A DNA stretch of 64,000 bases from an uncultured Actinomycetes bacterium (lineage in GTDB: Bacteria > Actinomycetota > UBA4738 > HRBIN12). The position numbers were made by a program, and so were the translations under genes. The DNA is taken from the NCBI GenBank assembly GCA_963704725.1, contig OY969934.1, positions 320,001 through 384,000 of the forward strand, written 5' to 3'. The notes under the pieces are model-generated. The model ran no database searches. It saw only the letters and a program-made list of their open reading frames with translations, and was not told where the DNA came from. This document shows positions 5,724 through 20,663 of this stretch, piece by piece; the stretch's first letter is position 1, and every line of letters starts with the position of its first letter.

Positions 5724-6571
5724 AGGAGACGCCCGTGCCCACGCCGCTCGATCGCACCAGGCAGATCCCGACCGGTCCGGGCAAGGTCACGCTGTGCTGG
5801 CTTGGGCAGGCGGGGTTCGTCGCGCGCGGGCCGGAGGCGACCGTCCTCATCGACCCGTTCCTCTCGCCCCACCGCGGGCGGTTGTACGAGAGCGCCCTCC
5901 CCCCGGCCGAGGCCTCCGGCGTCGACGTCGTGCTCTGCACGCACGAGCACGTCGATCACTTCGACGCGGCGAGCGCGCCGGCCATCGCTAAGGCCTCGCC
6001 CGGCGCGGTCTTCGTGGTGCCCGCTCCGATCGTGGACATGGTGACCGAGGCGGGCATCGCCGCGGAACGCGTGGTGGGGCTTCAGCCGGGGGGCCCCGTC
6101 GAGGTGGCCGGGGTCACGCTCCGCGCCATGCCGGCCATGCACGGGGTCACGATGGCCGACGCGTACGGGTTCGGCGAGGCGCTCTCCGGGGGGATGATCA
6201 GGTTCCTCGGCTACGTGGTGGACCTCGGCGGCGTGCGGCTGTACCACGCGGGCGACACGATCCACTACGAGGGGATGGAGACGCGGCTCCGCGAGCTGTC
6301 GATCGACGTCGCCCTCCTGCCGATCAACGGCCGCGACCCCGAGCGCGAGGGCCGGGACATCGTGGGGAACCTCTCCGAGCGCGAGGCCGCGTGGCTCGCC
6401 GGCGAGATCGACGCGGGCGTGCTCATCCCTATGCACCACGACCTGTTCGAGCGGAACCGCGGCTACCCGGCCCACGTCGTCGAGAGCGTCGAGCGCGAGC
6501 ACCCCGGGACCGCCGTGCTGGTCCCGCCGCGCGAGGTGCCGTTCGTCCTCGCGCCGGCGAGGCCGGCGTGA
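5720..6571 (+). CDS. MBL-fold metallo-hydrolase (UlaG-like)
   Basis: WLGQAGF, THEHVDH, YHAGDT, LLPING, IPMHHD. Confidence 0.85.
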   Translation: MKETPVPTPLDRTRQIPTGPGKVTLCWLGQAGFVARGPEATVLIDPFLSPHRGRLYESALPPAEASGVDVVLCTHEHVDHFDAASAPAIAKASPGAVFVVPAPIVDMVTEAGIAAERVVGLQPGGPVEVAGVTLRAMPAMHGVTMADAYGFGEALSGGMIRFLGYVVDLGGVRLYHAGDTIHYEGMETRLRELSIDVALLPINGRDPEREGRDIVGNLSEREAAWLAGEIDAGVLIPMHHDLFERNRGYPAHVVESVEREHPGTAVLVPPREVPFVLAPARPA

Positions 6572-7566
6572 ACGCGCTCGTCTACCTCGGCCCCCGGCGG
6601 ATGTCGTGGCAGGAGGAACCCGATCCCGAGCCGGGCCCGGGGGAGGTGGTGATCCGGGCCACGGCCTCGGCCGTGTGCGGCTCCGACCTCCACGGCTTCC
6701 GGGAGGCCAGCCCGCGACGGATCCCCCCGCTCGTCATGGGACACGAGACCGTGGGCCGGATCGACGCGGTGGGCGAGGGCGTGGACGCCTCGCGCATCGG
6801 CGAGCGGGTCGTGCTCAAGCCGATCCTGGCGTGCGGCGCGTGCGACCGGTGTCTCGAGGGACGCGACAACATCTGCCGGCAGGGACGTCTCGTGGGGCGG
6901 GACCTCGCCGGCGGGTTCGCCGAGCGCTTCGCCGTCCCGGCGCCGGCGACGGTCCCGATCGCCGGGGACGTGTCCGACGACGTCGCCACCCTGACCGAGC
7001 CGCTGGCGAACGCCGTCCACGTGACGAGCCGGAGCGTGGCCCTCGGTGACACGGTGCTGGTGATCGGCGCCGGGCCGATCGGCGCGCTCATGGCGCGGAT
7101 GGCCGTCGAGCGCGGGGCATCGGCCGTGTTCTCGGCCGATCGCATCCCCTCGCGCCTGGAGCTCGCTCGGGCGCAGGGCGCCCGGCCGCTCGACCCGGAC
7201 GACCCGGAGGGCTCGATGCGGCGCGAAATCGCCGACGGCGTCGACGTGGTGATCGACGCGGTGGGGGTCGAGGCGACGTGGGCCCTTGGCCTCCGCTCGG
7301 TGCGTCCGGGTGGCCGGATCGAGGTGGTGGGTCTCGGGGCGCCCGCCGGGACGATCGACTTCTTCTCCGTGGTCGGCCGCGAGGTCCAGGTCTCCGGGTC
7401 GTTCGGCTGGACGAGCGAAGACTTCCGCCGCGCGCTCGAGCTCGTCGAGGGCGGCTCGATCGACGTCGCCGGGTGGCTGACGGGCTTCTCGATGGCCGAG
7501 GGTCAGCGCGCGTTCGAGGAGCTCGTCGACGGCACGGCACTGTTCAAGGTGGTCCTCGCTCCTTGA
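6568..7566 (+). CDS. Zinc-dependent sugar/alcohol dehydrogenase (MDR)
   Basis: VCGSDLH, GHE, CGACDRC..C, GAGPIG; GTGA overlap with the upstream gene. Confidence 0.9.
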   Translation: MNALVYLGPRRMSWQEEPDPEPGPGEVVIRATASAVCGSDLHGFREASPRRIPPLVMGHETVGRIDAVGEGVDASRIGERVVLKPILACGACDRCLEGRDNICRQGRLVGRDLAGGFAERFAVPAPATVPIAGDVSDDVATLTEPLANAVHVTSRSVALGDTVLVIGAGPIGALMARMAVERGASAVFSADRIPSRLELARAQGARPLDPDDPEGSMRREIADGVDVVIDAVGVEATWALGLRSVRPGGRIEVVGLGAPAGTIDFFSVVGREVQVSGSFGWTSEDFRRALELVEGGSIDVAGWLTGFSMAEGQRAFEELVDGTALFKVVLAP

Positions 7567-9594: not shown

Positions 9595-9859
9595 GGGCTC
9601 GAGCGGCAGCCATCGACAGGCCCCTTGAAGATCCGGACCGGCCCACCCGATCGGTCAAGCGCCCGGCGATGGGGCGCAATGCGCTTGACCAGGCCTTTGT
9701 CGAACTGGTCGCCGATCTTGGCACTCCGACCGGTGGTCAACCCTTCCTGGCACACCGGTACTTCAGGTATCACACGCTCAGGGAAGGCTCGAGCAGGTTC
9801 GCCCGGTTGAGAATCCCCTGAGATACCTGGGGTTGAAAGAATGGAACATCGTGCCTAAC

Positions 9860-10102
9860 ATGTCCGAACGCTCGTTCGATGCGGAGCACGGGGAGGAGTC
9901 TCAGGTGATCTCGGAACGCACCCGCAAGCGCCGGGAAGCACTTGAGCGAACCCGGGAGGCTCGCCGCCAGATGCTCGAGGATCCGGCGATCAAGGCGCGG
10001 ACGCGTGAGGTGCTTGACCAGATGGCGGGAGGGGACAAGCCGAAGGAGCCTGGAATCACCAAGGAGAGATTGCCGGACTTCCTTCGTGAGCACAACTCCT
10101 AG
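9860..10102 (+). CDS. Small charged hypothetical protein, antitoxin-like, in a lower-GC islet
   Basis: 80-aa helical ORF; overlaps a second start (GTG 10086) whose frame runs into the downstream promoter. Confidence 0.5.
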   Translation: MSERSFDAEHGEESQVISERTRKRREALERTREARRQMLEDPAIKARTREVLDQMAGGDKPKEPGITKERLPDFLREHNS

Positions 10103-10185
10103 TTGGACTCTCGATCCTGATCGACTCGCCGAATCCCTGGCGGAGTGGCACCAAACGAATCCGAGCGTTCCCACAAGGGGTCGAT

Positions 10186-10216
10186 TTGTCTACCGAGCGG
10201 TAGAGATGCATAATCT
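10186..10216 (+). promoter_or_regulatory. Promoter with palindromic operator for the lipid operon
   Basis: TTGTCT-17-CATAAT; TCTACCG-AG-CGGTAGA at 10189-10204 overlaps the -35 and spacer; GTG at 10222 is near-leaderless. Confidence 0.7.
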
Positions 10217-10221
10217 GCCGC

Positions 10222-12510
10222 GTGGTAGAGCCTCGGCGGCCCCGCGCGAGCTCGATCGTGAAGCGGCTCGCGGGCAGGAACGTCCTGGTCACGGGCGTGA
10301 CCGGCTTCCTCGGGCAGGCCGTGTTCGAGCGCCTCCTGAACGACTTCCCCGAGACGCGGATCACGCTGCTGGTCCGGCCCCAGCTCGGCTCGAGCGGGCG
10401 GCAGCGGGTCGAGTCGCTGTTCGGCCGGCCCACCTTCGGAGCCCTCCGGGACAAGCTCGGCAACGAGGGGATGAAGGCGGCCTTCGAGGAGCGGGTCGAG
10501 GTCGTCGACGGCGACTTCTCGCAGGAGGGGCTGGAGATCCCGGGCGGGATCGACGTCGTCATCCACTGCGCGGCCACCGTCTCGTTCGACCCGCCGATAG
10601 ACGAGGGGTTCCTGACGAACCTGCTCGGTGCGGTCCGCTTCTACGAGGCGGTCCTGGCGAGCAACGACGCCCCGCACCTGCTCCACGTCTCGACGGCGTA
10701 CGTGGCGGGCAACCGCAAGGGTGTGATCCCCGAGGCCACGCTCGACCATCGCGTCGACTGGCGGGTCGAGGCCGAGCTCGCGCTCCAGGCCCGCAAAGAC
10801 GTCGAGGCGGCCAGCCGCAAGCCCGAGCTCTTGGACTCGTTCCTGCGCAGGGCGCGAGCCGAGCACGGCCGAGCCGGCCCCCAATCGGTCTCCGACGACG
10901 CCGAGGACCGCCGCAAGACCTGGGTGACCAAGCGCCTCGTCCAGTACGGGCGGGCCCGGGCGCAGACGCTCGGGTGGCCGGACAACTACACGTTCACGAA
11001 GGCCATGGGGGAGCGCGCCGTCGAGGAGACCGCCGCCGCGCACGGCGCGCCGCTATCGATCGTGCGCCCCTCGATCATCGAGTCCGCGTACGCGCACCCG
11101 TTCCCCGGCTGGATCGAGGGCTTCAAGATGGCCGAGCCGATCATCCTGGCGTACGGCCGCGGCACGATCCCCGAGTTCCCCGGCATCCCCGAGGGCATCG
11201 TCGACATCATCCCGGCCGACTACGTGGTGAACGCGATGCTCGCGGCCGCAGCCACCCCGCCCGAGCCGGCGAAGCCCGCCTACTACCACGTGAGCTCGGG
11301 GTCCCGGAACCCCTTGCAGTACAAGGGCCTGTACGAGTACGTGAAGGAGTACTACGAGCGCGACCCGCTGCCACAGCACGGGCGGGGCGACGTGAAGGTA
11401 CCCGAGTGGTCCTTCCCCGGCCATCTCCGCGTGGAGCGGCTCCTCAAGACGGCCGAGCGCGCCGTCGAGGTGGCCGACAAGGTGGTCACCCACCTCCCGA
11501 AGTCGAAGAAGATGCGCGACCTTGTCGGCCGCCTTGATCGCGACAAGGGGCGGGTCGACTTCATCCGGCGCTACTCGGACCTCTACGGTGCGTACACCGA
11601 GGCTGAGGTGATCTACACCGACGACCGCACGGTGGAGCTGTTCGGCTCGCTCACCGCGGCCGACCGCAAGCGGTTCCCGTTCGACTCGGCCGCGATGGAC
11701 TGGCGCTACTACCTCCAGGACGTGCACTGCCCCGCGGTGACGCAGGGGCTGCGGATGCTGTCGAGCGCGCGACTGAAGCCCCAGGTCCGGATCCGCGAGC
11801 GCGAACAGCTCGTCCTGGCGCTCTTCGACATGGAGGGGACGATCCTGCCCTCCAACGTCGTCGAGTCCTACGTGTGGTCGCGCATGGCAGACCTGCCGTG
11901 GGACCAGTGGCCGGATGAGCTCGTCAGCGTGTTCTCGCGGATCCCCTCGTACCTGATGGCCGACCGCCGAGACCGCGGTGAGTTCCTCCGCACGTTCTTC
12001 CGCCGGTACGAGAACGCCACCGTCGAGGGCGTCGACCGGCTCGTAGAGGAGGTCGTGTCGGAGTTCATGCTCCAGAAGGTCTCGGCGGCGGCGGTCCGGC
12101 GGGTCCGCGAGCACCGCGCGCACGGCCACCGCACGATCATGATCACGGCCGCCGCCGAGCCGTTCATCCAGCCGCTCGCGCCGCTGTTCGACGAGGTGGT
12201 GGGGGCTCGGTTGGCGGTCGAGAACGGCATCTACACCGGCTACCTGGCCGAGCCGCCGCTCGTGGGCGAGGCCCGGGGAGCGTGGCTCCGCCGGTACGCC
12301 CTCCTCGAAGGGGCCGACCTGAAGTCGAGCTACGCGTATGCGGACTCGCACTCGGACCTCGCGCTCCTGCGGGCGGTCGGCAACCCCGTCGCCGTGAGCC
12401 CCGACGCGGCGCTCCTGCGCCTGGCCCGCCGCCGCCGGTGGCCGGTCGAGGAGTGGCAGATGGCCGGCGGCATGCCTCGCGTCCGTTTCCCGAAGCCGGC
12501 GGTGCGCTGA
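10222..12510 (+). CDS. Fatty acyl-CoA reductase (male-sterility type) fused to HAD-IB phosphatase
   Basis: TGVTGFLG, HVSTAYV, YTFTK, IVRPSII, PFPGWIEG; C-terminal FDMEGT, ITAA, YADSHSD..VGNPVAV. Confidence 0.9.
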   Translation: MVEPRRPRASSIVKRLAGRNVLVTGVTGFLGQAVFERLLNDFPETRITLLVRPQLGSSGRQRVESLFGRPTFGALRDKLGNEGMKAAFEERVEVVDGDFSQEGLEIPGGIDVVIHCAATVSFDPPIDEGFLTNLLGAVRFYEAVLASNDAPHLLHVSTAYVAGNRKGVIPEATLDHRVDWRVEAELALQARKDVEAASRKPELLDSFLRRARAEHGRAGPQSVSDDAEDRRKTWVTKRLVQYGRARAQTLGWPDNYTFTKAMGERAVEETAAAHGAPLSIVRPSIIESAYAHPFPGWIEGFKMAEPIILAYGRGTIPEFPGIPEGIVDIIPADYVVNAMLAAAATPPEPAKPAYYHVSSGSRNPLQYKGLYEYVKEYYERDPLPQHGRGDVKVPEWSFPGHLRVERLLKTAERAVEVADKVVTHLPKSKKMRDLVGRLDRDKGRVDFIRRYSDLYGAYTEAEVIYTDDRTVELFGSLTAADRKRFPFDSAAMDWRYYLQDVHCPAVTQGLRMLSSARLKPQVRIREREQLVLALFDMEGTILPSNVVESYVWSRMADLPWDQWPDELVSVFSRIPSYLMADRRDRGEFLRTFFRRYENATVEGVDRLVEEVVSEFMLQKVSAAAVRRVREHRAHGHRTIMITAAAEPFIQPLAPLFDEVVGARLAVENGIYTGYLAEPPLVGEARGAWLRRYALLEGADLKSSYAYADSHSDLALLRAVGNPVAVSPDAALLRLARRRRWPVEEWQMAGGMPRVRFPKPAVR

Positions 12511-12601
12511 TGAGAGGGATGGCGCCTTCCGAACGCGGTCGATCTCGAATTCGGTATCGAGTCGTCTCGGGAGGTCTGCATGTGTGCCGGGTGCCGGGCC
12601 G

Positions 12602-13807
12602 ATGACGGTCCAGGCGCTCGAGCTGTTCCGCTCGGCCCCGCGGTACCTGACGGCTCGCGCGGTGGGCGACAGGGTCCCCGGCCTGCTCTCCGGCGCCCTC
12701 GCCCCGATGCGGCTCGTGAACAAGAAGGACCCCGAGGTGAAGGGCCCCGGCTGGGCCCGTGTGCGCCCCCTGCTCTCCGGTATCTGCGGCTCCGACCTCG
12801 CCACGATCAGCGGCAAGTCGAGCTTCTATTTCTCGCCGCTCGTCTCGCTCCCGTTCGTCCCCGGCCACGAGGTCGTGGGCGAGCTGATCGACGACGTCGA
12901 CGACCTCCCCGCCGGCACGCGGATCGCGCTCGAGCCGGTCCTGTCGTGCCTGGCCCGCGGCCTCGACCCGTGCCCGAACTGCGCCGCCGGCCTCACCGGC
13001 CGGTGCGACCGCGTTACCACCGGCCACGTCAGCGCCGGCCTCCAGACCGGGTACTGCGCCGACACCGGCGGGGGCTGGTCGAGGATGTTCGTCGCGCACC
13101 GGTCGCAGCTCCACCCGGTGCCGGACGAGCTCTCCGACCGCCGCGCCGTGCTCGTCGAGCCGCTCTCGTGCGCCGTCCACACCGCGCTCCGCGCGAACGT
13201 CGAGCCGAACGCGAACGTGCTCGTCGTCGGCGCGGGGACGGTCGGCGTCCTCGTCCTCCTCGCGCTGAAGGAGCTGACGAAGGCGGGCCGGATCACCGTC
13301 GTGGCCAAACACGGCGCCCAGCGCGAGTGGGCGAGGGCGTTCGGCGCCACCGAGGTCGTCGACACGAAGGAGGCCACGAACGCCGTCCGCCGCTCGAGCC
13401 ACGCGATGAAGCTGAAGCCCGAGTACGGGCCCTCGTTCCTGCTCGGCGGTGTCGACGTGGCGATCGACTGCGTGGGCTCGAAGGCAAGCCTCGACCTGGC
13501 GCTCCGGACCACCAAGGCGGGCGGGCGCGTCGTTGCGGCCGGCATCCCCGGCCCCGGCGCCGACCTCACGCCGCTGTGGTACCGCGAGCTCGAGCTCGTC
13601 GGCGCCTACACCGGCGGGATCGAGACCGTCGAGGGCGAGCAACGCAGCGCCTTCGACCTCGCCATCGACATCGCCCGCGAGAACCCGATCGACGGGATCG
13701 TCGGCGCGACCTACCCCCTCCCGCGGTGGCGCGAGGCCATCGACCACGCCCTCGGCGCGGGCAAGCTCGGCACGCTCCGCGTGGCCTTCGACCCTCGAAA
13801 GGACTGA
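12602..13807 (+). CDS. Zinc-binding dehydrogenase (MDR)
   Basis: GICGSD, GHE, C..CPNC..C, GAGTVG. Confidence 0.9.
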   Translation: MTVQALELFRSAPRYLTARAVGDRVPGLLSGALAPMRLVNKKDPEVKGPGWARVRPLLSGICGSDLATISGKSSFYFSPLVSLPFVPGHEVVGELIDDVDDLPAGTRIALEPVLSCLARGLDPCPNCAAGLTGRCDRVTTGHVSAGLQTGYCADTGGGWSRMFVAHRSQLHPVPDELSDRRAVLVEPLSCAVHTALRANVEPNANVLVVGAGTVGVLVLLALKELTKAGRITVVAKHGAQREWARAFGATEVVDTKEATNAVRRSSHAMKLKPEYGPSFLLGGVDVAIDCVGSKASLDLALRTTKAGGRVVAAGIPGPGADLTPLWYRELELVGAYTGGIETVEGEQRSAFDLAIDIARENPIDGIVGATYPLPRWREAIDHALGAGKLGTLRVAFDPRKD

Positions 13808-13815
13808 GACCAACC

Positions 13816-15402
13816 ATGGCGCGACCGGGTTTCGTGTTGGAAGTCGACGAGCGGACGCCTCCGCTCCTCGTCCACCAGGGCGAGGGGTTCCGGCTCCAGA
13901 AGTTCCCGCTCGGCTCGCGGGTGATCTACCCGCCGGACTCGCTCCCGGCGATCCGCAACGTCCGCGGCGCGATCCGCCACGCCCTCGAGCACCCCGTCGA
14001 CGCCGAGCCCCTCCGCGAGTTGCTCACGCCCGGCATGAAGCTCACGATCGCGATCGACGACGTCTCGCTCCCGCTCCCGCCGATGCGGAGCCCCGACGTC
14101 CGCCAGCTCGTGCTCGAGGAGGTCATCGAGCTCGCGGCCCACGAGGGCGTCGAGGACGTCAAGCTCTACATGGCCAACTCGCTGCATCGCCGGATGACCG
14201 CCGACGAGATCAAGCACGCCGTCGGCGAGCGCGTGTTCCGCTCGTTCTACCCGAAGGACCTCAAGAACCACGACGCCGAGGACCGCGACAACCTCGTCTT
14301 CGTCGGCACCACCGACCAGGGCGAGGAGGTCGAGCTCAACAAGCGGGCCATGGAGTCGGACCTGCTCGTCTACGTGAACATCAACCTCGTGGCCATGGAC
14401 GGTGGCCACAAGGCCGTGCCGGTCGGCCTGGCGAGCTACCGCAGCGTCCGCCATCACCACAACGTGCACACGATGCTGCACTCGAAGTCGTACATGGACC
14501 CCCGGCCCGGGCGCTCGGCGATCCACGACTCGTGCGCCCGGATGGGCCTCGTGCTGAAGGACGCCGGTCTGAAGATCTTCCAGATCGAGACCACGCTGAA
14601 CAACGAGACCTTCCCCAAGCCCTTCGGCTTCATGAACAAGCGCGAGTGGGAATGGTCGCTGATCGAGCAGGGCACGTACCTCGCGGCGAAGAAGGCCAAC
14701 GAGCTCGGCCCGAGCGCAGCCAAGCACCAGATCTGGACGCGGATCGAGTCGCCCTACGGCGTGACCGGGGTCAACGCCGGCGCCGTCGACGGCGTGCACG
14801 AGCGGACGCTGGCCCGCTTGCACGAGCAGCAGCTCGTCGAGGTGCAGGGCCAGAGCGACGTCATGGTGATCGGCCTGCCGTACGTCGGCCCGTACAACGT
14901 GCACTCGATCATGAACCCGATCCTCGTGCACTGCCTGGGGCTCGGCTACCTGTTCAACATGTACCGGAACAAGCCGGTGGTGCGGCCGGGCGGCGTGATG
15001 ATCCTGTTCCACCCGATGCCGAACGAGTTCCACCAGGTCCACCACCCGAGCTACGTCGACTTCTTCGAGGAGGTCCTGGCCGAGACCACCGACCCCAGCA
15101 CGATCGAGTCGAAGTACGAGGAGCGGTACGCCACCGACCCCTGGTACATACACCTGTACCGCAAGAGCTACGCGTACCACGGCGTGCACCCCTTCTACAT
15201 GTGGTACTGGGGCGCGCACGCGCTCGACTACCTCGGCGACGTGGTGGTGGTCGGCGGTGACGCCAAGGTGTGCGAGCGCCTGGGCTACCGGGCGGCGTCG
15301 AGCTTCCGCGACGCGCTCGAGATGGCCGGCGAGAAGGTGGGCCGCTCGCCCTCGATCAGCTACCTCCACGTGCCCCCGTTGGCGATCGCGGACGTGCGAT
15401 GA
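13816..15402 (+). CDS. Lactate racemase-like (LarA N / DUF2088) domain protein
   Basis: ALEHPVDAEPL, IAIDDVSLP, ANSLHRRMT, NHDAED, DGGHK, PGGVMIL. Confidence 0.8.
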   Translation: MARPGFVLEVDERTPPLLVHQGEGFRLQKFPLGSRVIYPPDSLPAIRNVRGAIRHALEHPVDAEPLRELLTPGMKLTIAIDDVSLPLPPMRSPDVRQLVLEEVIELAAHEGVEDVKLYMANSLHRRMTADEIKHAVGERVFRSFYPKDLKNHDAEDRDNLVFVGTTDQGEEVELNKRAMESDLLVYVNINLVAMDGGHKAVPVGLASYRSVRHHHNVHTMLHSKSYMDPRPGRSAIHDSCARMGLVLKDAGLKIFQIETTLNNETFPKPFGFMNKREWEWSLIEQGTYLAAKKANELGPSAAKHQIWTRIESPYGVTGVNAGAVDGVHERTLARLHEQQLVEVQGQSDVMVIGLPYVGPYNVHSIMNPILVHCLGLGYLFNMYRNKPVVRPGGVMILFHPMPNEFHQVHHPSYVDFFEEVLAETTDPSTIESKYEERYATDPWYIHLYRKSYAYHGVHPFYMWYWGAHALDYLGDVVVVGGDAKVCERLGYRAASSFRDALEMAGEKVGRSPSISYLHVPPLAIADVR

Positions 15403-16304
15403 GCTTCGTCGACGAGATCCGCGACGTCGCCAAGGGCTGGCGGTGGGGCCGCCGGACGATGACCCCGCGCTCGGCCCTCGAGTCGACGCCGCCGCCCAAG
15501 CGCTGGGACTTCCCCACGGACTGGGCCAGGACCGACGCGGCCGGCGTGGCGCGGGACGTGATCCTGGACTACGGGATCAAGTCGATCATCTGGAACGAGA
15601 CGAGCCCCGAGGTCTTCGGCCTCGACAACCTCGAGGGGCTGAAGGGCCCGGTGATGTTCATCTCGAACCACTCGAGCCACCTCGACGCGTCGATCCTCAT
15701 GGTCACGCTGCCGAAGGACTGGCGCGAGAAGACCGCGACCGCGGCGGCCAAGGACTACTTCTTCGACGTGTGGTGGCGCTCGGCGTTCACGGCGCTCGTG
15801 TACGCGGGCTTCCCGGTCGAGCGCGGCGCCGGCGAGCGGGCCACGGCCAAGGCCAAGGAGCTGATCCGCGACGGCTGGAACATCATCGTGTTCCCCGAGG
15901 GGACGAGGTCGGTCGACGGCTGGCTCCAGCGCTTCCGCCACGGGACGGCCAAGCTGGCCCTCGAGATGCACATGCCGGTGATGCCGGTGGCGATCGTCGG
16001 CGCATACGCGGCGATGCCGAAGGGCCGGTCCTGGCCCAAGCCGGGCCGGCCGCCGATCCGGGTCCGGTACGGCAAGCCGCTGTTCCCGGCCGAGGGCGAG
16101 ACGCACCAGCAGCTCTCGCTCCGGATGCAGCAGGCCGTGGCCGAGCTGTTCGACGAGGACCGCACGAGCTGGTTCGAGGCCCAGCAGCGCGCCGCCCGCG
16201 GCGAGACCCCCAAGATGACCGGCCCCCAGGGCCCCGGCTGGCTCCGGACCTGGGAGGGCACGAGGCCGATCCGCCGCAGCGGCAAGCCCCCGGTCTGGAA
16301 GTGA
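15399..16304 (+). CDS. PlsC-family (lysophospholipid) acyltransferase
   Basis: NHSSHLD, FPEGTRS; ATGA overlap. Confidence 0.9.
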   Translation: MSFVDEIRDVAKGWRWGRRTMTPRSALESTPPPKRWDFPTDWARTDAAGVARDVILDYGIKSIIWNETSPEVFGLDNLEGLKGPVMFISNHSSHLDASILMVTLPKDWREKTATAAAKDYFFDVWWRSAFTALVYAGFPVERGAGERATAKAKELIRDGWNIIVFPEGTRSVDGWLQRFRHGTAKLALEMHMPVMPVAIVGAYAAMPKGRSWPKPGRPPIRVRYGKPLFPAEGETHQQLSLRMQQAVAELFDEDRTSWFEAQQRAARGETPKMTGPQGPGWLRTWEGTRPIRRSGKPPVWK

Positions 16305-16308
16305 TCAG

Positions 16309-16917
16309 GTGACGCGCACGGGCGGCGAGGTCCGGCGCCACGCGCTCATCGAGGAGGCCATCCGCGCGTTCGGCCGCGAGGGCTACTCGGGCGCGAGCCT
16401 CGAGCAGATCGCGACCGCCGTCGGGATCCGCAAGCAGACCCTCCTGTACTACTTCCCGACCAAGGATGCGCTCCTCGAGGCGTGCCTCCAGGCCGCCGGT
16501 CAGCGCGTCGCCCAGGACGTCGTCGCCGCCCTCGAGGGCAAGGAGACCTACTGGGACCGGGCCGAGGCGGTCATCCACGCCGTCTTCCGCCTCGCCGAGG
16601 AGTGGCCCGAGTTCCCCATGTTCGTTCGGGAGGCGGGTCGGCTCGGCGCCGAGGGGTTCGAACGGTTCGCGAGCGTGATCGACCCGCTGAGGAAGCGGGC
16701 AGTGGACTTCCTCCAGGCCGGGATGGATGCGGGGGAGATCCGAGAGCAGGACCCCGCGTTGCTGCTGTTCATGCTGTACACGGCGGTGGTGGGATCGCTC
16801 ACTGAGGCGAGCGTCCTGAATGCCGTGGTCGGAAAGGACAGGAGCCGCGCTTCACTTCGTCGGCGTGAACGAGAGGTTGTCTCGTTCGTTCGGGGCGCCC
16901 TGGCGCCCGCCGTGTAG
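16309..16917 (+). CDS. TetR/AcrR family regulator
   Basis: GYSGASLEQIATAVGIRKQTLLYYFPTKDAL. Confidence 0.9.
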   Translation: MTRTGGEVRRHALIEEAIRAFGREGYSGASLEQIATAVGIRKQTLLYYFPTKDALLEACLQAAGQRVAQDVVAALEGKETYWDRAEAVIHAVFRLAEEWPEFPMFVREAGRLGAEGFERFASVIDPLRKRAVDFLQAGMDAGEIREQDPALLLFMLYTAVVGSLTEASVLNAVVGKDRSRASLRRREREVVSFVRGALAPAV

Positions 16918-16939
16918 TCCTCGCCCTTCTTTGACAGGT

Positions 16940-17326
16940 CTAGGCAGTTTGCGCGAGGCGCCTGGGATTGCCCGTGAAGCTCTCCTCGTGCGCCACACCC
17001 GTCACCGAAACAGGGGCCTGCTGTGCTGACGTCACGGCCTCTCGCAAGGCGGCCAGGAGGTTGTTGCTTGTCCCGGTTCCTGCCTCGACCGTGTACCTGG
17101 GGCTGAGGTAGGCCTTGAGCGCTTGCCGCACCACATCTGAGTAGCTGACGTCGAGGTCTCTTGCGGCACGCCGCAGTAGTTCTGCATCTTCTGAAGACAA
17201 GCGGACGGTAATTGTGGCGCCCAGTGGTCGGCGCGGGGCGCCGGCTTCAGACGTCTCGTCCTCACCCCACACATTCGAGTCGTCCTTGTGAGCCTGGTAG
17301 AAGGCTGCGCGCTCCATATCCGACAT
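16940..17326 (-). CDS. CopG/RHH antitoxin (BrnA-like) with C-terminal extension
   Basis: TITVRLSSEDAELLRRAARDLDVSYSDVVRQAL, downstream of the BrnT-like gene. Confidence 0.7.
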   Translation of the reverse strand: MSDMERAAFYQAHKDDSNVWGEDETSEAGAPRRPLGATITVRLSSEDAELLRRAARDLDVSYSDVVRQALKAYLSPRYTVEAGTGTSNNLLAALREAVTSAQQAPVSVTGVAHEESFTGNPRRLAQTA

Positions 17327-17341
17327 CTCCGCTCCTCGCTT

Positions 17342-17626
17342 TCACTTCGCCAAGTACTTCGCTTCCTCTTCCTTCGTAGGCCGCCAGCCGGTAACTGCCC
17401 TAAGCCACAGCGTCCGTTCGTTCATCGAGACCACGATCGTAAGCGGTCGGCCAGCGTCGGTGCGACCGACCATCTTCCAGTCTGCGCTCCCGCCGGCCTT
17501 ATTCGGAGCCCACTTGGGTGCGTTCCAGAAGACTTCCTCGACTTCCCAAGGGCGGATCTCGTGTGCCGCAAGCTCGCTCTCGTTCGCTTCATCCCACTCC
17601 AACCCCTCGCTGTCCCTTGGGTGCAC
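17342..17626 (-). CDS. BrnT-family RNase toxin
   Basis: LEWDEANE..HEI...EVEEVF..GRTDAGRPLTIV..RAVTGW. Confidence 0.8.
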   Translation of the reverse strand: MHPRDSEGLEWDEANESELAAHEIRPWEVEEVFWNAPKWAPNKAGGSADWKMVGRTDAGRPLTIVVSMNERTLWLRAVTGWRPTKEEEAKYLAK

Positions 17627-17644
17627 TTGTCAACTCCCGCCATC

Positions 17645-17676
17645 TGTCTTACACTTCAGCCCAGAATGTAATACAT
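17645..17676. promoter_or_regulatory. Putative RHH operator sites between divergent genes
   Basis: TGTCTTACA (17645-17653) and near-palindrome ATGTAATACAT (17666-17676). Confidence 0.45.
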
Positions 17677-17694
17677 CTGAAAGGGGTCGACAAC

Positions 17695-18120
17695 ATGCAG
17701 GTTGACTACGTGGTCCTGGCGGATGCCGCCGTGACGGCGGACGGGAAGCACTACATCCACGGTGCTGGGTGGGACACGATCTACGCGGCGGCGTTCCCAG
17801 TGCAACACCCGCTGCTTGCCGTGGCTGTGCGGCTCCGAGTGCCGTGGACGGCGACGAACCAGCCCCATTCGCTGGAGTTGGATATCGTCGATGAGGACGG
17901 GCGCTCAGCGTTGCCGGAGCCGCCAGGCGTGCTGAAGGGTGAAATCAACGTTGGCCGACCGCCTCAACTGCAGCCGTCCCAAGACCAAGTTGTCCCCCTG
18001 ACCTTCAATCTGCGGTCGCTCACCTTTGAGAAGCCAGGAGGCTACTCCGTTGTGGTCCGCGTCGACGGAAGCGAGGAAGGAAGATCGCCATTCAAGGTCG
18101 CTGAAGTGCTTGGTGGCTGA
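17695..18120 (+). CDS. DUF6941-like hypothetical protein
   Basis: VLADAAVTADGKHYIHGAGWD..PGGYSVVVRVDG, beta-rich. Confidence 0.7.
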   Translation: MQVDYVVLADAAVTADGKHYIHGAGWDTIYAAAFPVQHPLLAVAVRLRVPWTATNQPHSLELDIVDEDGRSALPEPPGVLKGEINVGRPPQLQPSQDQVVPLTFNLRSLTFEKPGGYSVVVRVDGSEEGRSPFKVAEVLGG

Positions 18121-19694: not shown

Positions 19695-20663
19695 ATGGCG
19701 ATGAAGGCGATCGTGCAGGACAGGTACGGGACCGCGGACGTGCTCGAGTTCCGGGACGTGCCGGAGCCGGACGTGGGGGAGGGCGAGGTCCGCATCCGGG
19801 TGCGGGCGGCGGGCGCGGGGCCCGACGTGTGGCACCTCATGACGGGGCAGCCGTACTTCGCGCGGCTCATGCCGGGGTTCCGGAAGATCTGGGGGCACCC
19901 CCGCGGCCGCGACGTGGCCGGCGTCGTCGAGTCCGTCGGCGCGAAGGTCACCGGGCTCGCGCCCGGCGACGAGGTGATGGGCATCGCCGAGGGCACGTTC
20001 GCCGAGCTCGCGGTGGGCACGGCCGAGCTCGTCGTCCCCAAGCCGTCGAGGCTCTCGTTCGAGGAGGCCGCCGCGGCGCCGATCTCGGGCCTCACGGCGG
20101 TCCAGGCGATCCGCGATTTCGCGAAGGTGAAGCCCGGGCAGCGCGTGCTCGTGATCGGCGCGGGCGGCGGCGCCGGCACCCTGACCGTGCAGGTCGCGAA
20201 GGCCTTCGGCGCCCACGTCACCGGGGTGGCGAGCACGTCGAAGCTCGAGCTCGTGCGCTCGGTCGGCGCCGACGAGGTCATCGACTACACGCGCCAGGAG
20301 CTCGCCGGCCGGTGGGACGCGATCGTCGACACGGCCGGCCGGCGTCCGCTCCGCGTGCTCCGCAAGCTCCTCACGCCGACCGGTGTGCTCGGGATCGTCG
20401 GCGGCGACGGCGGCGGGCGGTGGACGGGCGGGTTCTTCCGCCAGGTCCTCCGCGCGCCGATCGTCTCGCTGTTCACGAGGCAGCGGCTCGGCCCGGTGAT
20501 CGCGAAGGAGAAGGGCGAGGACCTGCGCGCGCTCGCCGAGCTGATCGAGCGCGGCGACGTCACGCCGGTCGTCGGCCGGACGTTCCCGCTGATCGAGGCC
20601 GCCGACGCGATCCGCCACATCGAGGGCGGTCACGCCGCCGGCAAGGTCGTCGTGACGGTCTGA
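19695..20663 (+). CDS. NAD(P)-dependent zinc-independent MDR oxidoreductase
   Basis: MKAIVQDRYG, GRDVAGVV, GAGGGAG, GHAAGKVVVTV. Confidence 0.9.
   Translation: MAMKAIVQDRYGTADVLEFRDVPEPDVGEGEVRIRVRAAGAGPDVWHLMTGQPYFARLMPGFRKIWGHPRGRDVAGVVESVGAKVTGLAPGDEVMGIAEGTFAELAVGTAELVVPKPSRLSFEEAAAAPISGLTAVQAIRDFAKVKPGQRVLVIGAGGGAGTLTVQVAKAFGAHVTGVASTSKLELVRSVGADEVIDYTRQELAGRWDAIVDTAGRRPLRVLRKLLTPTGVLGIVGGDGGGRWTGGFFRQVLRAPIVSLFTRQRLGPVIAKEKGEDLRALAELIERGDVTPVVGRTFPLIEAADAIRHIEGGHAAGKVVVTV
20501..20663 (+). repeat. Direct repeat copy 1 (3' end of the MDR gene)
   Basis: 163 bp, ungapped match to 29471-29633, 19 mismatches by hand count. Confidence 0.9.

Follow-up and report, generated by a model that had tools for sequence, protein, structure and literature searches.

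The window analysed here, a stretch of 64,000 nucleotides (nt) from an uncultured Actinomycetes bacterium (assembly GCA_963704725.1, contig OY969934.1, positions 320,001 to 384,000), contains at positions 10186-16917 a five-gene operon, presumably under repressor control, that is conserved across many actinobacteria. Its genes encode a fatty acyl reductase (FAR) fused to a HAD domain (FAR-HAD), a Zn-dependent MDR dehydrogenase, a LarA homologue (LarAH), a PlsC-type acyltransferase and a TetR-family regulator. Judged by the homology of its proteins, the operon is related to the elb ether-lipid genes of myxobacteria, with the parts rearranged. We lean towards the reading in which it is the actinobacterial counterpart of the elbB-elbC-elbD core and would build ether lipids, most likely a 1-O-alkyl glycerol (phosphate). 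The best-conserved enzyme of the operon is, by its sequence, the LarA homologue, a nickel-cofactor protein of the lactate-racemase type. The direct observations on which these conclusions build concern gene content, operon structure, conserved operators, synteny, homology to elb, the residues that anchor the nickel-pincer nucleotide (NPN) and the linkage to lar genes.

The initial annotation of this DNA had described five co-oriented, tightly spaced genes behind one promoter, and both the Pfam and NCBIfam scans and the spacing (intergenic gaps of 73, 8, -4 and 4 nt) agree with it. All five genes lie on the plus strand. The first one (10222-12510) encodes the 762-aa FAR-HAD protein with matches to NAD_binding_4 (173.5 bits, 6e-51), Sterile and HAD (111.3 bits, 1e-31), and the protein scores 101.3 bits against the HAD-IB model TIGR01490 (cut-off 98.3). 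Its FAR part carries the motifs TGVTGFLG (GxxGxxG) and YTFTK (YxxxK) followed by the C-terminal Sterile domain, and matches the fatty acyl-CoA reductase 7eoz from PDB along its entire length (residues 12-507, 2e-50). The second gene (12584-13807, alternative start at 12602) encodes the MDR dehydrogenase with ADH_N and ADH_zinc_N domains; the ribosome-binding site GGAGG is located 9 nt ahead of its GTG at 12584. The nearest solved relatives of this protein are a putative zinc-binding dehydrogenase, galactitol-1-phosphate 5-dehydrogenase, ketose reductase and sorbitol dehydrogenase, and it is of the polyol or polyol-phosphate dehydrogenase type; this points, weakly, to a secondary alcohol or ketone of a polyol phosphate as its substrate and not to a plain fatty aldehyde. 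The third gene (13816-15402) encodes the 528-aa LarAH, with a Lar_N match (2e-40) and 887.9 bits against the NCBIfam model NF052592 (cut-off 740). The start codon of the fourth gene (15399-16304) overlaps the LarAH stop as ATGA; its product is a 301-aa PlsC/AGPAT-type acyltransferase with a match to Pfam Acyltransferase (77.9 bits, 8e-22, cut-off 23) and the motifs NHSSHLD (Hx4D) and FPEGTRS. Its score against TIGR00530 (69.7) is below the cut-off of 102.95, so it is not the canonical housekeeping PlsC. The TetR-family gene (16309-16917; N-terminal HTH domain TetR_N, 48.6 bits) begins 4 nt past the PlsC stop and closes the operon. Thus, the reductase and acyltransferase motifs, previously called intact, can all be read in the translations, and the domain scans uphold the earlier description of a reductase fused to HAD, a free acyltransferase and an added Zn-dehydrogenase.

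The elbABCDE genes of Myxococcus xanthus come from Lorenzen et al. 2014, reviewed in PMC9131029, with locus tags given in PMC13012113. According to these two sources, ElbA and ElbE are NAD-dependent epimerase/dehydratase proteins, and ElbD unites FAR, acyl-CoA synthetase, acyl carrier protein (ACP) and acyltransferase domains in one protein (PMC9131029, PMC13012113), as the initial annotation had stated. The HAD gene that it had named for the same cluster also has its counterpart in the published description, where ElbB is a HAD-like phosphohydrolase, while ElbC is given as a protein of unknown function (PMC9131029). The same review reports that disruption of elbD strongly lowers the ether lipids of M. 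xanthus, and counts the steps by which this pathway gets from a fatty acid to an alkyl ether lipid among the unknowns (PMC9131029). ElbD homologues have already been noted in metagenome-assembled genomes (MAGs) of Actinobacteriota (PMC11868695).

Homology to elb-cluster proteins, on which the initial annotation had staked its proposal, is present: PlsC and FAR of the operon resemble domains of ElbD, and LarAH is found in the elbC position. Among the relatives of the window PlsC longer than 527 aa, most of those listed carry AMP-binding, PP-binding and acyltransferase domains, and many of them add NAD_binding_4 and Sterile, being ElbD-type proteins of about 1450-1490 aa (one is labelled Anaeromyxobacteraceae); the first listed is a LarAH-PlsC record. 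The long fusion proteins are 31-45% identical to the window PlsC (E 6e-33 to 2e-21), and in sequence PlsC and the ElbD-type acyltransferase domain are related.

An alignment of 12 ElbD-like proteins, used as the sole query, yielded 80 metagenome loci. A locus was classed as ElbD-type if it had a FAR match and a PlsC match 1.5-3.5 kb downstream on the same strand, which gave 22 loci; 19 of these, with more than 1 kb of upstream sequence, could be evaluated for LarAH, and 17 for HAD. A LarAH homologue, mostly of full length and 40-50% identical to the one in the window, lies directly upstream of the ElbD-type gene in 16 of the 19 loci, and a HAD gene precedes LarAH in 15 of the 17. The DUF2088-type gene that the initial annotation had named for the elb cluster is thus found in the metagenome loci as a full-length LarAH between the HAD gene and the ElbD-like gene. 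In particular, locus L103 reads Epimerase / HAD / Lar_N / FAR-AMP-binding-PP-binding-Acyltransferase / Epimerase; this is the published elbABCDE layout with the LarA homologue in the place of elbC, a test that rests on metagenome loci of this layout. Each of the five elb-type LarAHs scored against NF052592 lies above its cut-off. The HAD domains of both lineages have in common the nucleophile Asp and an unusual alternation of Asp and Glu at +2 of motif I (D-x-[D/E]-G-T), and motifs II and IV of the FAR-HAD protein are kept.

In a FastTree phylogeny of 114 rows built without bootstrap (84 actinobacterial LarAHs, 27 elb-type LarAHs and 3 rows of a paralogous outgroup; loci L187 and L188, having only spurious long frames, were left out), the actinobacterial and elb-type proteins form two separate clades (support 99 and 95). 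This separation speaks for an old divergence of the two lineages rather than a recent transfer.

The LarAH of the operon is a member of the LarAH14/15/16 family (ElbC-type) and is predicted to be an NPN enzyme with one catalytic histidine. Among solved structures it comes closest to the single-histidine LarA homologues 9q2u/9q3k (E 1e-31) and 9q3j (E 1e-27), while L. plantarum LarA matches it with E 2.5e-8. In the HMMER alignment to L. plantarum LarA, with residue roles as described for other LarA homologues in section 2.5 of PMC12611868, four functional residues are retained, namely the first catalytic histidine (His108, here H124), the lysine anchoring the cofactor covalently (Lys184, K199), the Ni ligand (His200, H215) and the ribose contact (Asp72, D82). 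Two are lost: the second catalytic histidine (His174) is replaced by N190, and Arg75, which contacts the NPN phosphate and the substrate carboxylate, by L85.

This pattern holds throughout the family. In an alignment of 111 LarAH sequences (the window, 83 actinobacterial and 27 elb-type), residues D81, D82, H124, R125, N188, K199 and H215 are invariant, and in every sequence position 190 is occupied by Asn or Thr and position 85 by Leu, Ile, Val or Met. A family-specific set of invariant residues is located in the C-terminal part (H328, H399, H410, Y444, Y448, R449, H455, H458, W463, W465). The loss of the His174 equivalent agrees with PMC12611868, where LarA groups 14 and 15 are described as devoid of it (section 2.1). 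The protein looks built to hold NPN and to take a hydride from a C-OH group, and not to racemise a hydroxyacid. Since it is a member of the NPN family and keeps the cofactor-anchoring residues, its activity should involve hydride transfer rather than a plain AGPS-like exchange.

A paralogous group of LarA homologues, about 460-500 aa long, is present in many of the same genomes (G029, G039, G028, G050, G071 and G133 among others; loci L189-L191). Its members give two-part NF052592 matches of roughly 125-240 bits, and three of them formed the outgroup of the tree.

Genome loci were collected by a one-genome-per-species scan with the LarA homologue, which found 588 relatives in 599 matched stretches; the best 80 were retained, and all counts of named loci refer to these. 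Those with enough flanking sequence are considered evaluable (70 upstream, 76 downstream, and 69 for TetR). The order FAR-HAD, MDR, LarAH, PlsC is constant among the relatives. FAR, HAD and MDR stand in this order upstream of LarAH in 68 of the 70 evaluable loci, the other two having a fragmentary HAD match, and PlsC follows LarAH in all 76. A TetR gene comes next in 15 of 69 loci, which are the closest relatives. Carriers among the named records include Actinomadura, Micromonospora, Frankia, Nocardioides, Kribbella, Streptomyces, Haloechinothrix, Pseudonocardiales and Acidimicrobiales.

Moreover, NF052592 matches over the cut-off were found in 31 of the 121 genomes of a phylum sample (evenly drawn, at least 90% complete) and in 28 of a separate set of 41 close relatives; the genome tallies take in genomes flagged as unpublished, e.g. 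G029 among the 31 positives. A protein atlas search returned Lar_N clusters only, commonest in Actinomycetota, with one commonest in Myxococcota (score 0.92). Longer proteins matching LarAH number 15, of which 14 are single records, and many of them look like merged gene calls (MDR-LarAH, LarAH-PlsC, LarAH-TetR), so little weight was given to them.

Three unusual records were seen in these searches. P0256, a single record given little weight, has FAR-HAD-LarAH in one chain of 1328 aa and is possibly a true fusion; if real, it would be a natural fusion linking the functions of FAR, HAD and LarAH. P0258 combines a chlorophyll a/b-binding domain with a LarAH14-16-like part that is 35% identical over 97% of the query; with 15 member sequences on 9 contigs, it may be an algal gene or a merged gene model. 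Locus L028, a contig of 2.7 kb recorded as part of a Candidatus Velamenicoccus archaeovorus MAG, encodes LarAH, PlsC and TetR that are 73-83% identical to those of the window, and is probably a mis-binned actinobacterial contig.

In the genome from which the window comes, the genes for NPN synthesis, larB, larC and larE, stand together at C1:1332749-1335398, each scoring over its cut-off, and a further LarC-like match is found at C1:221289-221780. The same genome encodes a second LarA homologue (C1:2233160-2234395; 455 bits against the lactate racemase model, just under the cut-off of 460). When the lar genes of genome G089 were used as queries within the retrieved flanks, lar genes were found beside the operon in 19 of the 80 named loci, located either downstream, in the same or the opposite orientation, or upstream in divergent orientation; the records include Actinomadura, Thermomonospora, Micromonospora, Actinoallomurus, Haloechinothrix and Pseudonocardiales. 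In G089 and G130, larE, larB and larC directly follow PlsC. The flanks of the 80 elb-type loci gave no lar gene. Of the 31 LarAH14-16-positive genomes of the phylum sample, 28 have LarC, vs 60 of the 90 others.

The operon is preceded by a promoter-like site (10186-10214, plus strand, TTGTCT-17 nt-CATAAT), which is kept upstream of the operons of relatives; the region 9700-17400 contains two such sites, compared to 0.2 in shuffled sequences. The 16-bp palindrome that the initial annotation had placed at this promoter is exact (7+7, TCTACCG-AG-CGGTAGA, 10189-10204, operator 1) and overlaps the -35 hexamer and the spacer. It has a degenerate second copy with two mismatches, TCTGCCGCGTGGTAGA (10214-10229, operator 2), that begins at the last base of the -10 hexamer and extends over the likely site of transcription initiation as well as the GTG start codon. 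The window contains two matches to the palindrome, with 0.18 expected by chance (shuffles).

The operator core TACCGNNCGGTA is present in 9 of the 186 loci searched, always just upstream of FAR-HAD, and all nine have a TetR gene downstream; the core thus occurs only in TetR-bearing loci. An alignment of the window with eight of these nine loci shows that all nine sequences retain the -10 hexamer and operator 2, the core columns of operator 2 being invariant, and that seven retain the -35 hexamer and operator 1, which are absent in L044 and L045. The sequence flanking the promoter and operators varies freely. TetR is the presumed repressor acting on these two putative operators, and its binding would provide autoregulation: TetR, sitting on two operators that bracket the -10 hexamer, would silence the operon until a ligand, presumably lipid-like, arrives.

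The GTG at 10222 lies within operator 2, seven bases past the -10 hexamer. In the related loci L032 and L033 the proteins match FAR-HAD from residue 1, and the nucleotide alignment runs on past the GTG. As relatives match the protein from its first residue, FAR-HAD is probably translated from a leaderless mRNA.

A pathway that would use all five activities can be drawn up as follows. The FAR domain would convert an acyl thioester to a fatty aldehyde or alcohol, and the PlsC-type enzyme would acylate a glycerol-phosphate or dihydroxyacetone phosphate (DHAP) backbone. LarAH, with NPN as a transient hydride store, would then oxidise a C-OH group, which may be located at C2 of the glycerol-phosphate backbone or else at C1 of the fatty alcohol or hemiacetal; this would allow the ether bond to form, and the hydride would be returned, which would make the step redox-neutral overall. 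The polyol-phosphate-type MDR may perform a keto/hydroxy step on the backbone or reduce the aldehyde, and the fused HAD domain may take off the phosphate. By analogy, the last step has a recent precedent in ACAD10, a HAD-type phosphatase described as acting on alkyl-glycerophosphate (PMC13596139). In this scheme the most specific suggestion is also the more doubtful one: it is possible, though we would not call it probable, that the enzyme still missing from the aerobic bacterial (elb-type) pathway, the one that forms the ether bond, is LarAH14-16/ElbC, borrowing a hydride via NPN. As for the ether lipids proposed in the initial annotation, kinship with elb stood up to the comparison, while the alkylglycerol product and the assignment of ether exchange to the LarA-like protein, of keto reduction to the MDR and of dephosphorylation to the HAD domain remain what we infer.

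Several observations weigh against an ether-lipid function. The LarAH homologue is absent upstream in three of the 19 ElbD-type loci (L116, L129, L134). The operon is devoid of the ligase and ACP domains of ElbD: as had been noted earlier, the Pfam scan found no AMP-binding or PP-binding domain in it. Its Zn-MDR is without an elb counterpart, ElbA and ElbE being of the SDR type, and no SDR-type epimerase/dehydratase gene is present in the operon. Genomes G022, G110 and G150, all of the same family as the window and with a completeness of 98, 97 and 94%, carry LarAH14-16 over the cut-off, and no larB, larC or larE was found in them; G022 and G150 have the intact operon with TetR. Hence NPN dependence is not universal, or the LarAH copies of these three genomes are idle. 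According to Table 1 of PMC7583248, purified LarAH14 from Frankia, to which NPN had been added, catalysed none of the seven hydroxyacid reactions tried, which fits a non-hydroxyacid substrate but proves nothing. In the literature searched, no lipid data were found for any carrier of the operon. Finally, PMC11868695 calls the role of elb proteins in ether-bond formation not conclusively demonstrated, and reports Pontiella strains with ElbD homologues in which ether lipids were undetectable.

The alternative that survives best, although we consider it unlikely, is that the operon makes another specialised lipid with no ether bond, such as a fatty alcohol or wax-type ester, an acylated polyol phosphate or a 1,2-diol-type lipid, LarAH and MDR remodelling a polar polyol or hydroxy head group. 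Indeed, FAR and an acyltransferase together also fit the logic of wax-ester synthesis, the nearest solved relatives of MDR act on polyols and polyol phosphates, and the literature search gave no ether-lipid report for the named carrier genera. The characterised enzymes of the LarA family described in PMC7583248 and PMC11770544 are racemases or epimerases of hydroxy compounds. On the other hand, the acyltransferase is of the PlsC type and does not belong to the wax-synthase classes named in PMC9319179; the position of the carboxylate-binding Arg75 is hydrophobic in all 111 LarAHs; and the whole set of FAR, HAD, LarAH and acyltransferase recurs in ElbD-type loci. In M. xanthus, ether lipids drop strongly upon elbD disruption (PMC9131029).

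A salvage or catabolic function, in which the operon, induced via TetR, would process exogenous fatty alcohols, alkylglycerols or ether lipids, seems improbable to us. TetR-controlled operons are often substrate-induced, and an enzyme that shuttles hydride could equally split an ether by way of a hemiacetal; moreover, the salvage of alkylglycerol in mammals involves a HAD phosphatase and a kinase (PMC13596139). Still, FAR and PlsC are biosynthetic enzyme types, the operon contains no kinase, lipase or transporter, TetR is found in only 15 of the 69 evaluable loci, and the elb counterpart is needed for synthesis (PMC9131029). Least credible of all is a true epimerase that would invert C2 of a glycerol-phosphate backbone or of a 2-hydroxyacyl chain, giving lipids of unusual stereochemistry: the NCBIfam family name ("NPN-dependent hydroxyacid isomerase") and the invariant C-terminal H328, H399, H410, H455, H458, Y444 and Y448, one of which could supply a second base, are set against Asn or Thr at the His174 position in 111 of 111 sequences, an Asn there being, as argued by the authors of the nearest structures (PMC12611868, section 2.5), incapable of acid/base catalysis, and against the lack of racemase activity in Frankia LarAH14 (PMC7583248).

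Other gene arrangements were seen in the metagenome loci. L134, one of the ElbD-type loci with no LarAH, has an extra PlsC upstream and a HAD gene downstream, and it carries a homologue of the window MDR (44% identity, 5e-93); no other ElbD-type gene was seen to have an MDR beside it. In a third arrangement (L153, L163, L154, L162, L170, L173), HAD is followed by FAR, and LarAH is missing upstream. The FAR gene of L153 and L163 is on its own: over 3.6 kb of sequence follow it, and no acyltransferase domain adjoins it; in the other four, the downstream sequence is too short to tell whether an acyltransferase adjoins FAR. The 541-aa protein P0128 joins FAD_binding_4 to an acyltransferase 39% identical to the window PlsC, a pairing that recalls AGPS/GNPAT.

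The G+C content of the window is about 70%, and because of this many long spurious frames overlap the real genes. The open reading frames (ORFs) 13449-15260 and 15257-16312 were rejected as genes, having no Pfam match, and so was the ORF 12580-15402, where the Pfam match is confined to the LarA part. The neighbouring genes, among them those for a PfkB kinase, another Zn-dependent alcohol dehydrogenase, a ribbon-helix-helix protein and a DUF6941 protein, showed no link to the operon. These surroundings include an 89-aa ORF with its own promoter-like site (9833-10102, plus strand), the ribbon-helix-helix gene (16940-17326, minus strand) and the DUF6941 gene (17518-18120, plus strand), and for none of the three was a link to the operon seen. 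Two more genes of Zn-dependent MDR dehydrogenases are located less than 10 kb from the operon on the plus strand (6391-7566 and 19695-20663).

The LarAH14-16 branch of nickel-pincer enzymes is without a known substrate, the Frankia member being inactive in every hydroxyacid reaction tried (PMC7583248). The operon, its elb counterpart and the attached lar genes combine into one testable proposal both for the function of ElbC and for the substrate of LarAH14-16, and no paper combining "ether lipid" and "lactate racemase" was found in the literature searched. If the proposal is true, nickel-pincer chemistry would be extended to lipids, LarAH would be the first NPN enzyme acting on a lipid and not a hydroxyacid racemase or epimerase, and a likely actinobacterial source would be named for the alkyl glycerol ethers of soils and sediments. 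According to work attributed to Sinninghe Damste et al. from 2023, the lipids of Rubrobacterales are reportedly mainly mixed ether/ester ones, and all five Rubrobacter genomes are said to contain a putative 1-O-alkyl glycerol phosphate operon similar to the one for ether lipids in other aerobic bacteria. If it is the same operon as that of the window, this gene set would be tied to actinobacteria with mostly mixed ether/ester lipids.

Comparison with the LarA superfamily shows the Lar_N fold, the anchor lysine, the Ni-binding histidine, the ribose-contacting aspartate and the first catalytic histidine as common features, and the replacement of the second catalytic histidine by Asn is shared with the subfamily of 9q2u (Streptococcus plurextorum; with 9q3k) and 9q3j (Blautia wexlerae), as described in PMC12611868. 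The differences are the low identity to solved structures, the hydrophobic residue that in the operon's LarAH replaces the carboxylate-binding arginine, and the genomic context, made up of lipid genes and not of genes for carbohydrates or hydroxyacids; the LarAH14-16 family as a whole is without any known activity.

The operon and elb both have a FAR domain and a HAD-IB phosphatase; they also share the LarAH14-16-type protein, which in elb-type loci takes the elbC position, and a PlsC-type acyltransferase marked by the signatures NHSSHLD, KDYFF and FPEGTR. The elb-type gene order is HAD, LarAH, reductase/acyltransferase, and FAR is fused there to the ligase, ACP and acyltransferase, whereas in the operon it is fused to HAD. 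The acyltransferase of the operon is a free protein, so that, unlike elb, the operon has no multidomain ElbD. Another difference from elb is the presumed control by TetR with its own operators in part of the actinobacterial lineage.

The anaerobic enzymes PlsA/PlsR and Ger, as described in PMC13159169, possibly lead to the same product class, bacterial alkyl and alkenyl glycerol ethers, but they convert existing esters and belong to protein families unrelated to those of the operon. The peroxisomal-type route (FAR1, GNPAT, AGPS and acyl/alkyl-DHAP reductase; in myxobacteria, MXAN_1676-1674) is closer in its logic. A reductase, a backbone acyltransferase and a keto/hydroxy oxidoreductase are present in both systems, so the logic of that route can be mapped onto the operon step by step; the difference lies at the ether-forming step, where the operon has no gene for the FAD-linked AGPS and an NPN-type enzyme would take its place.

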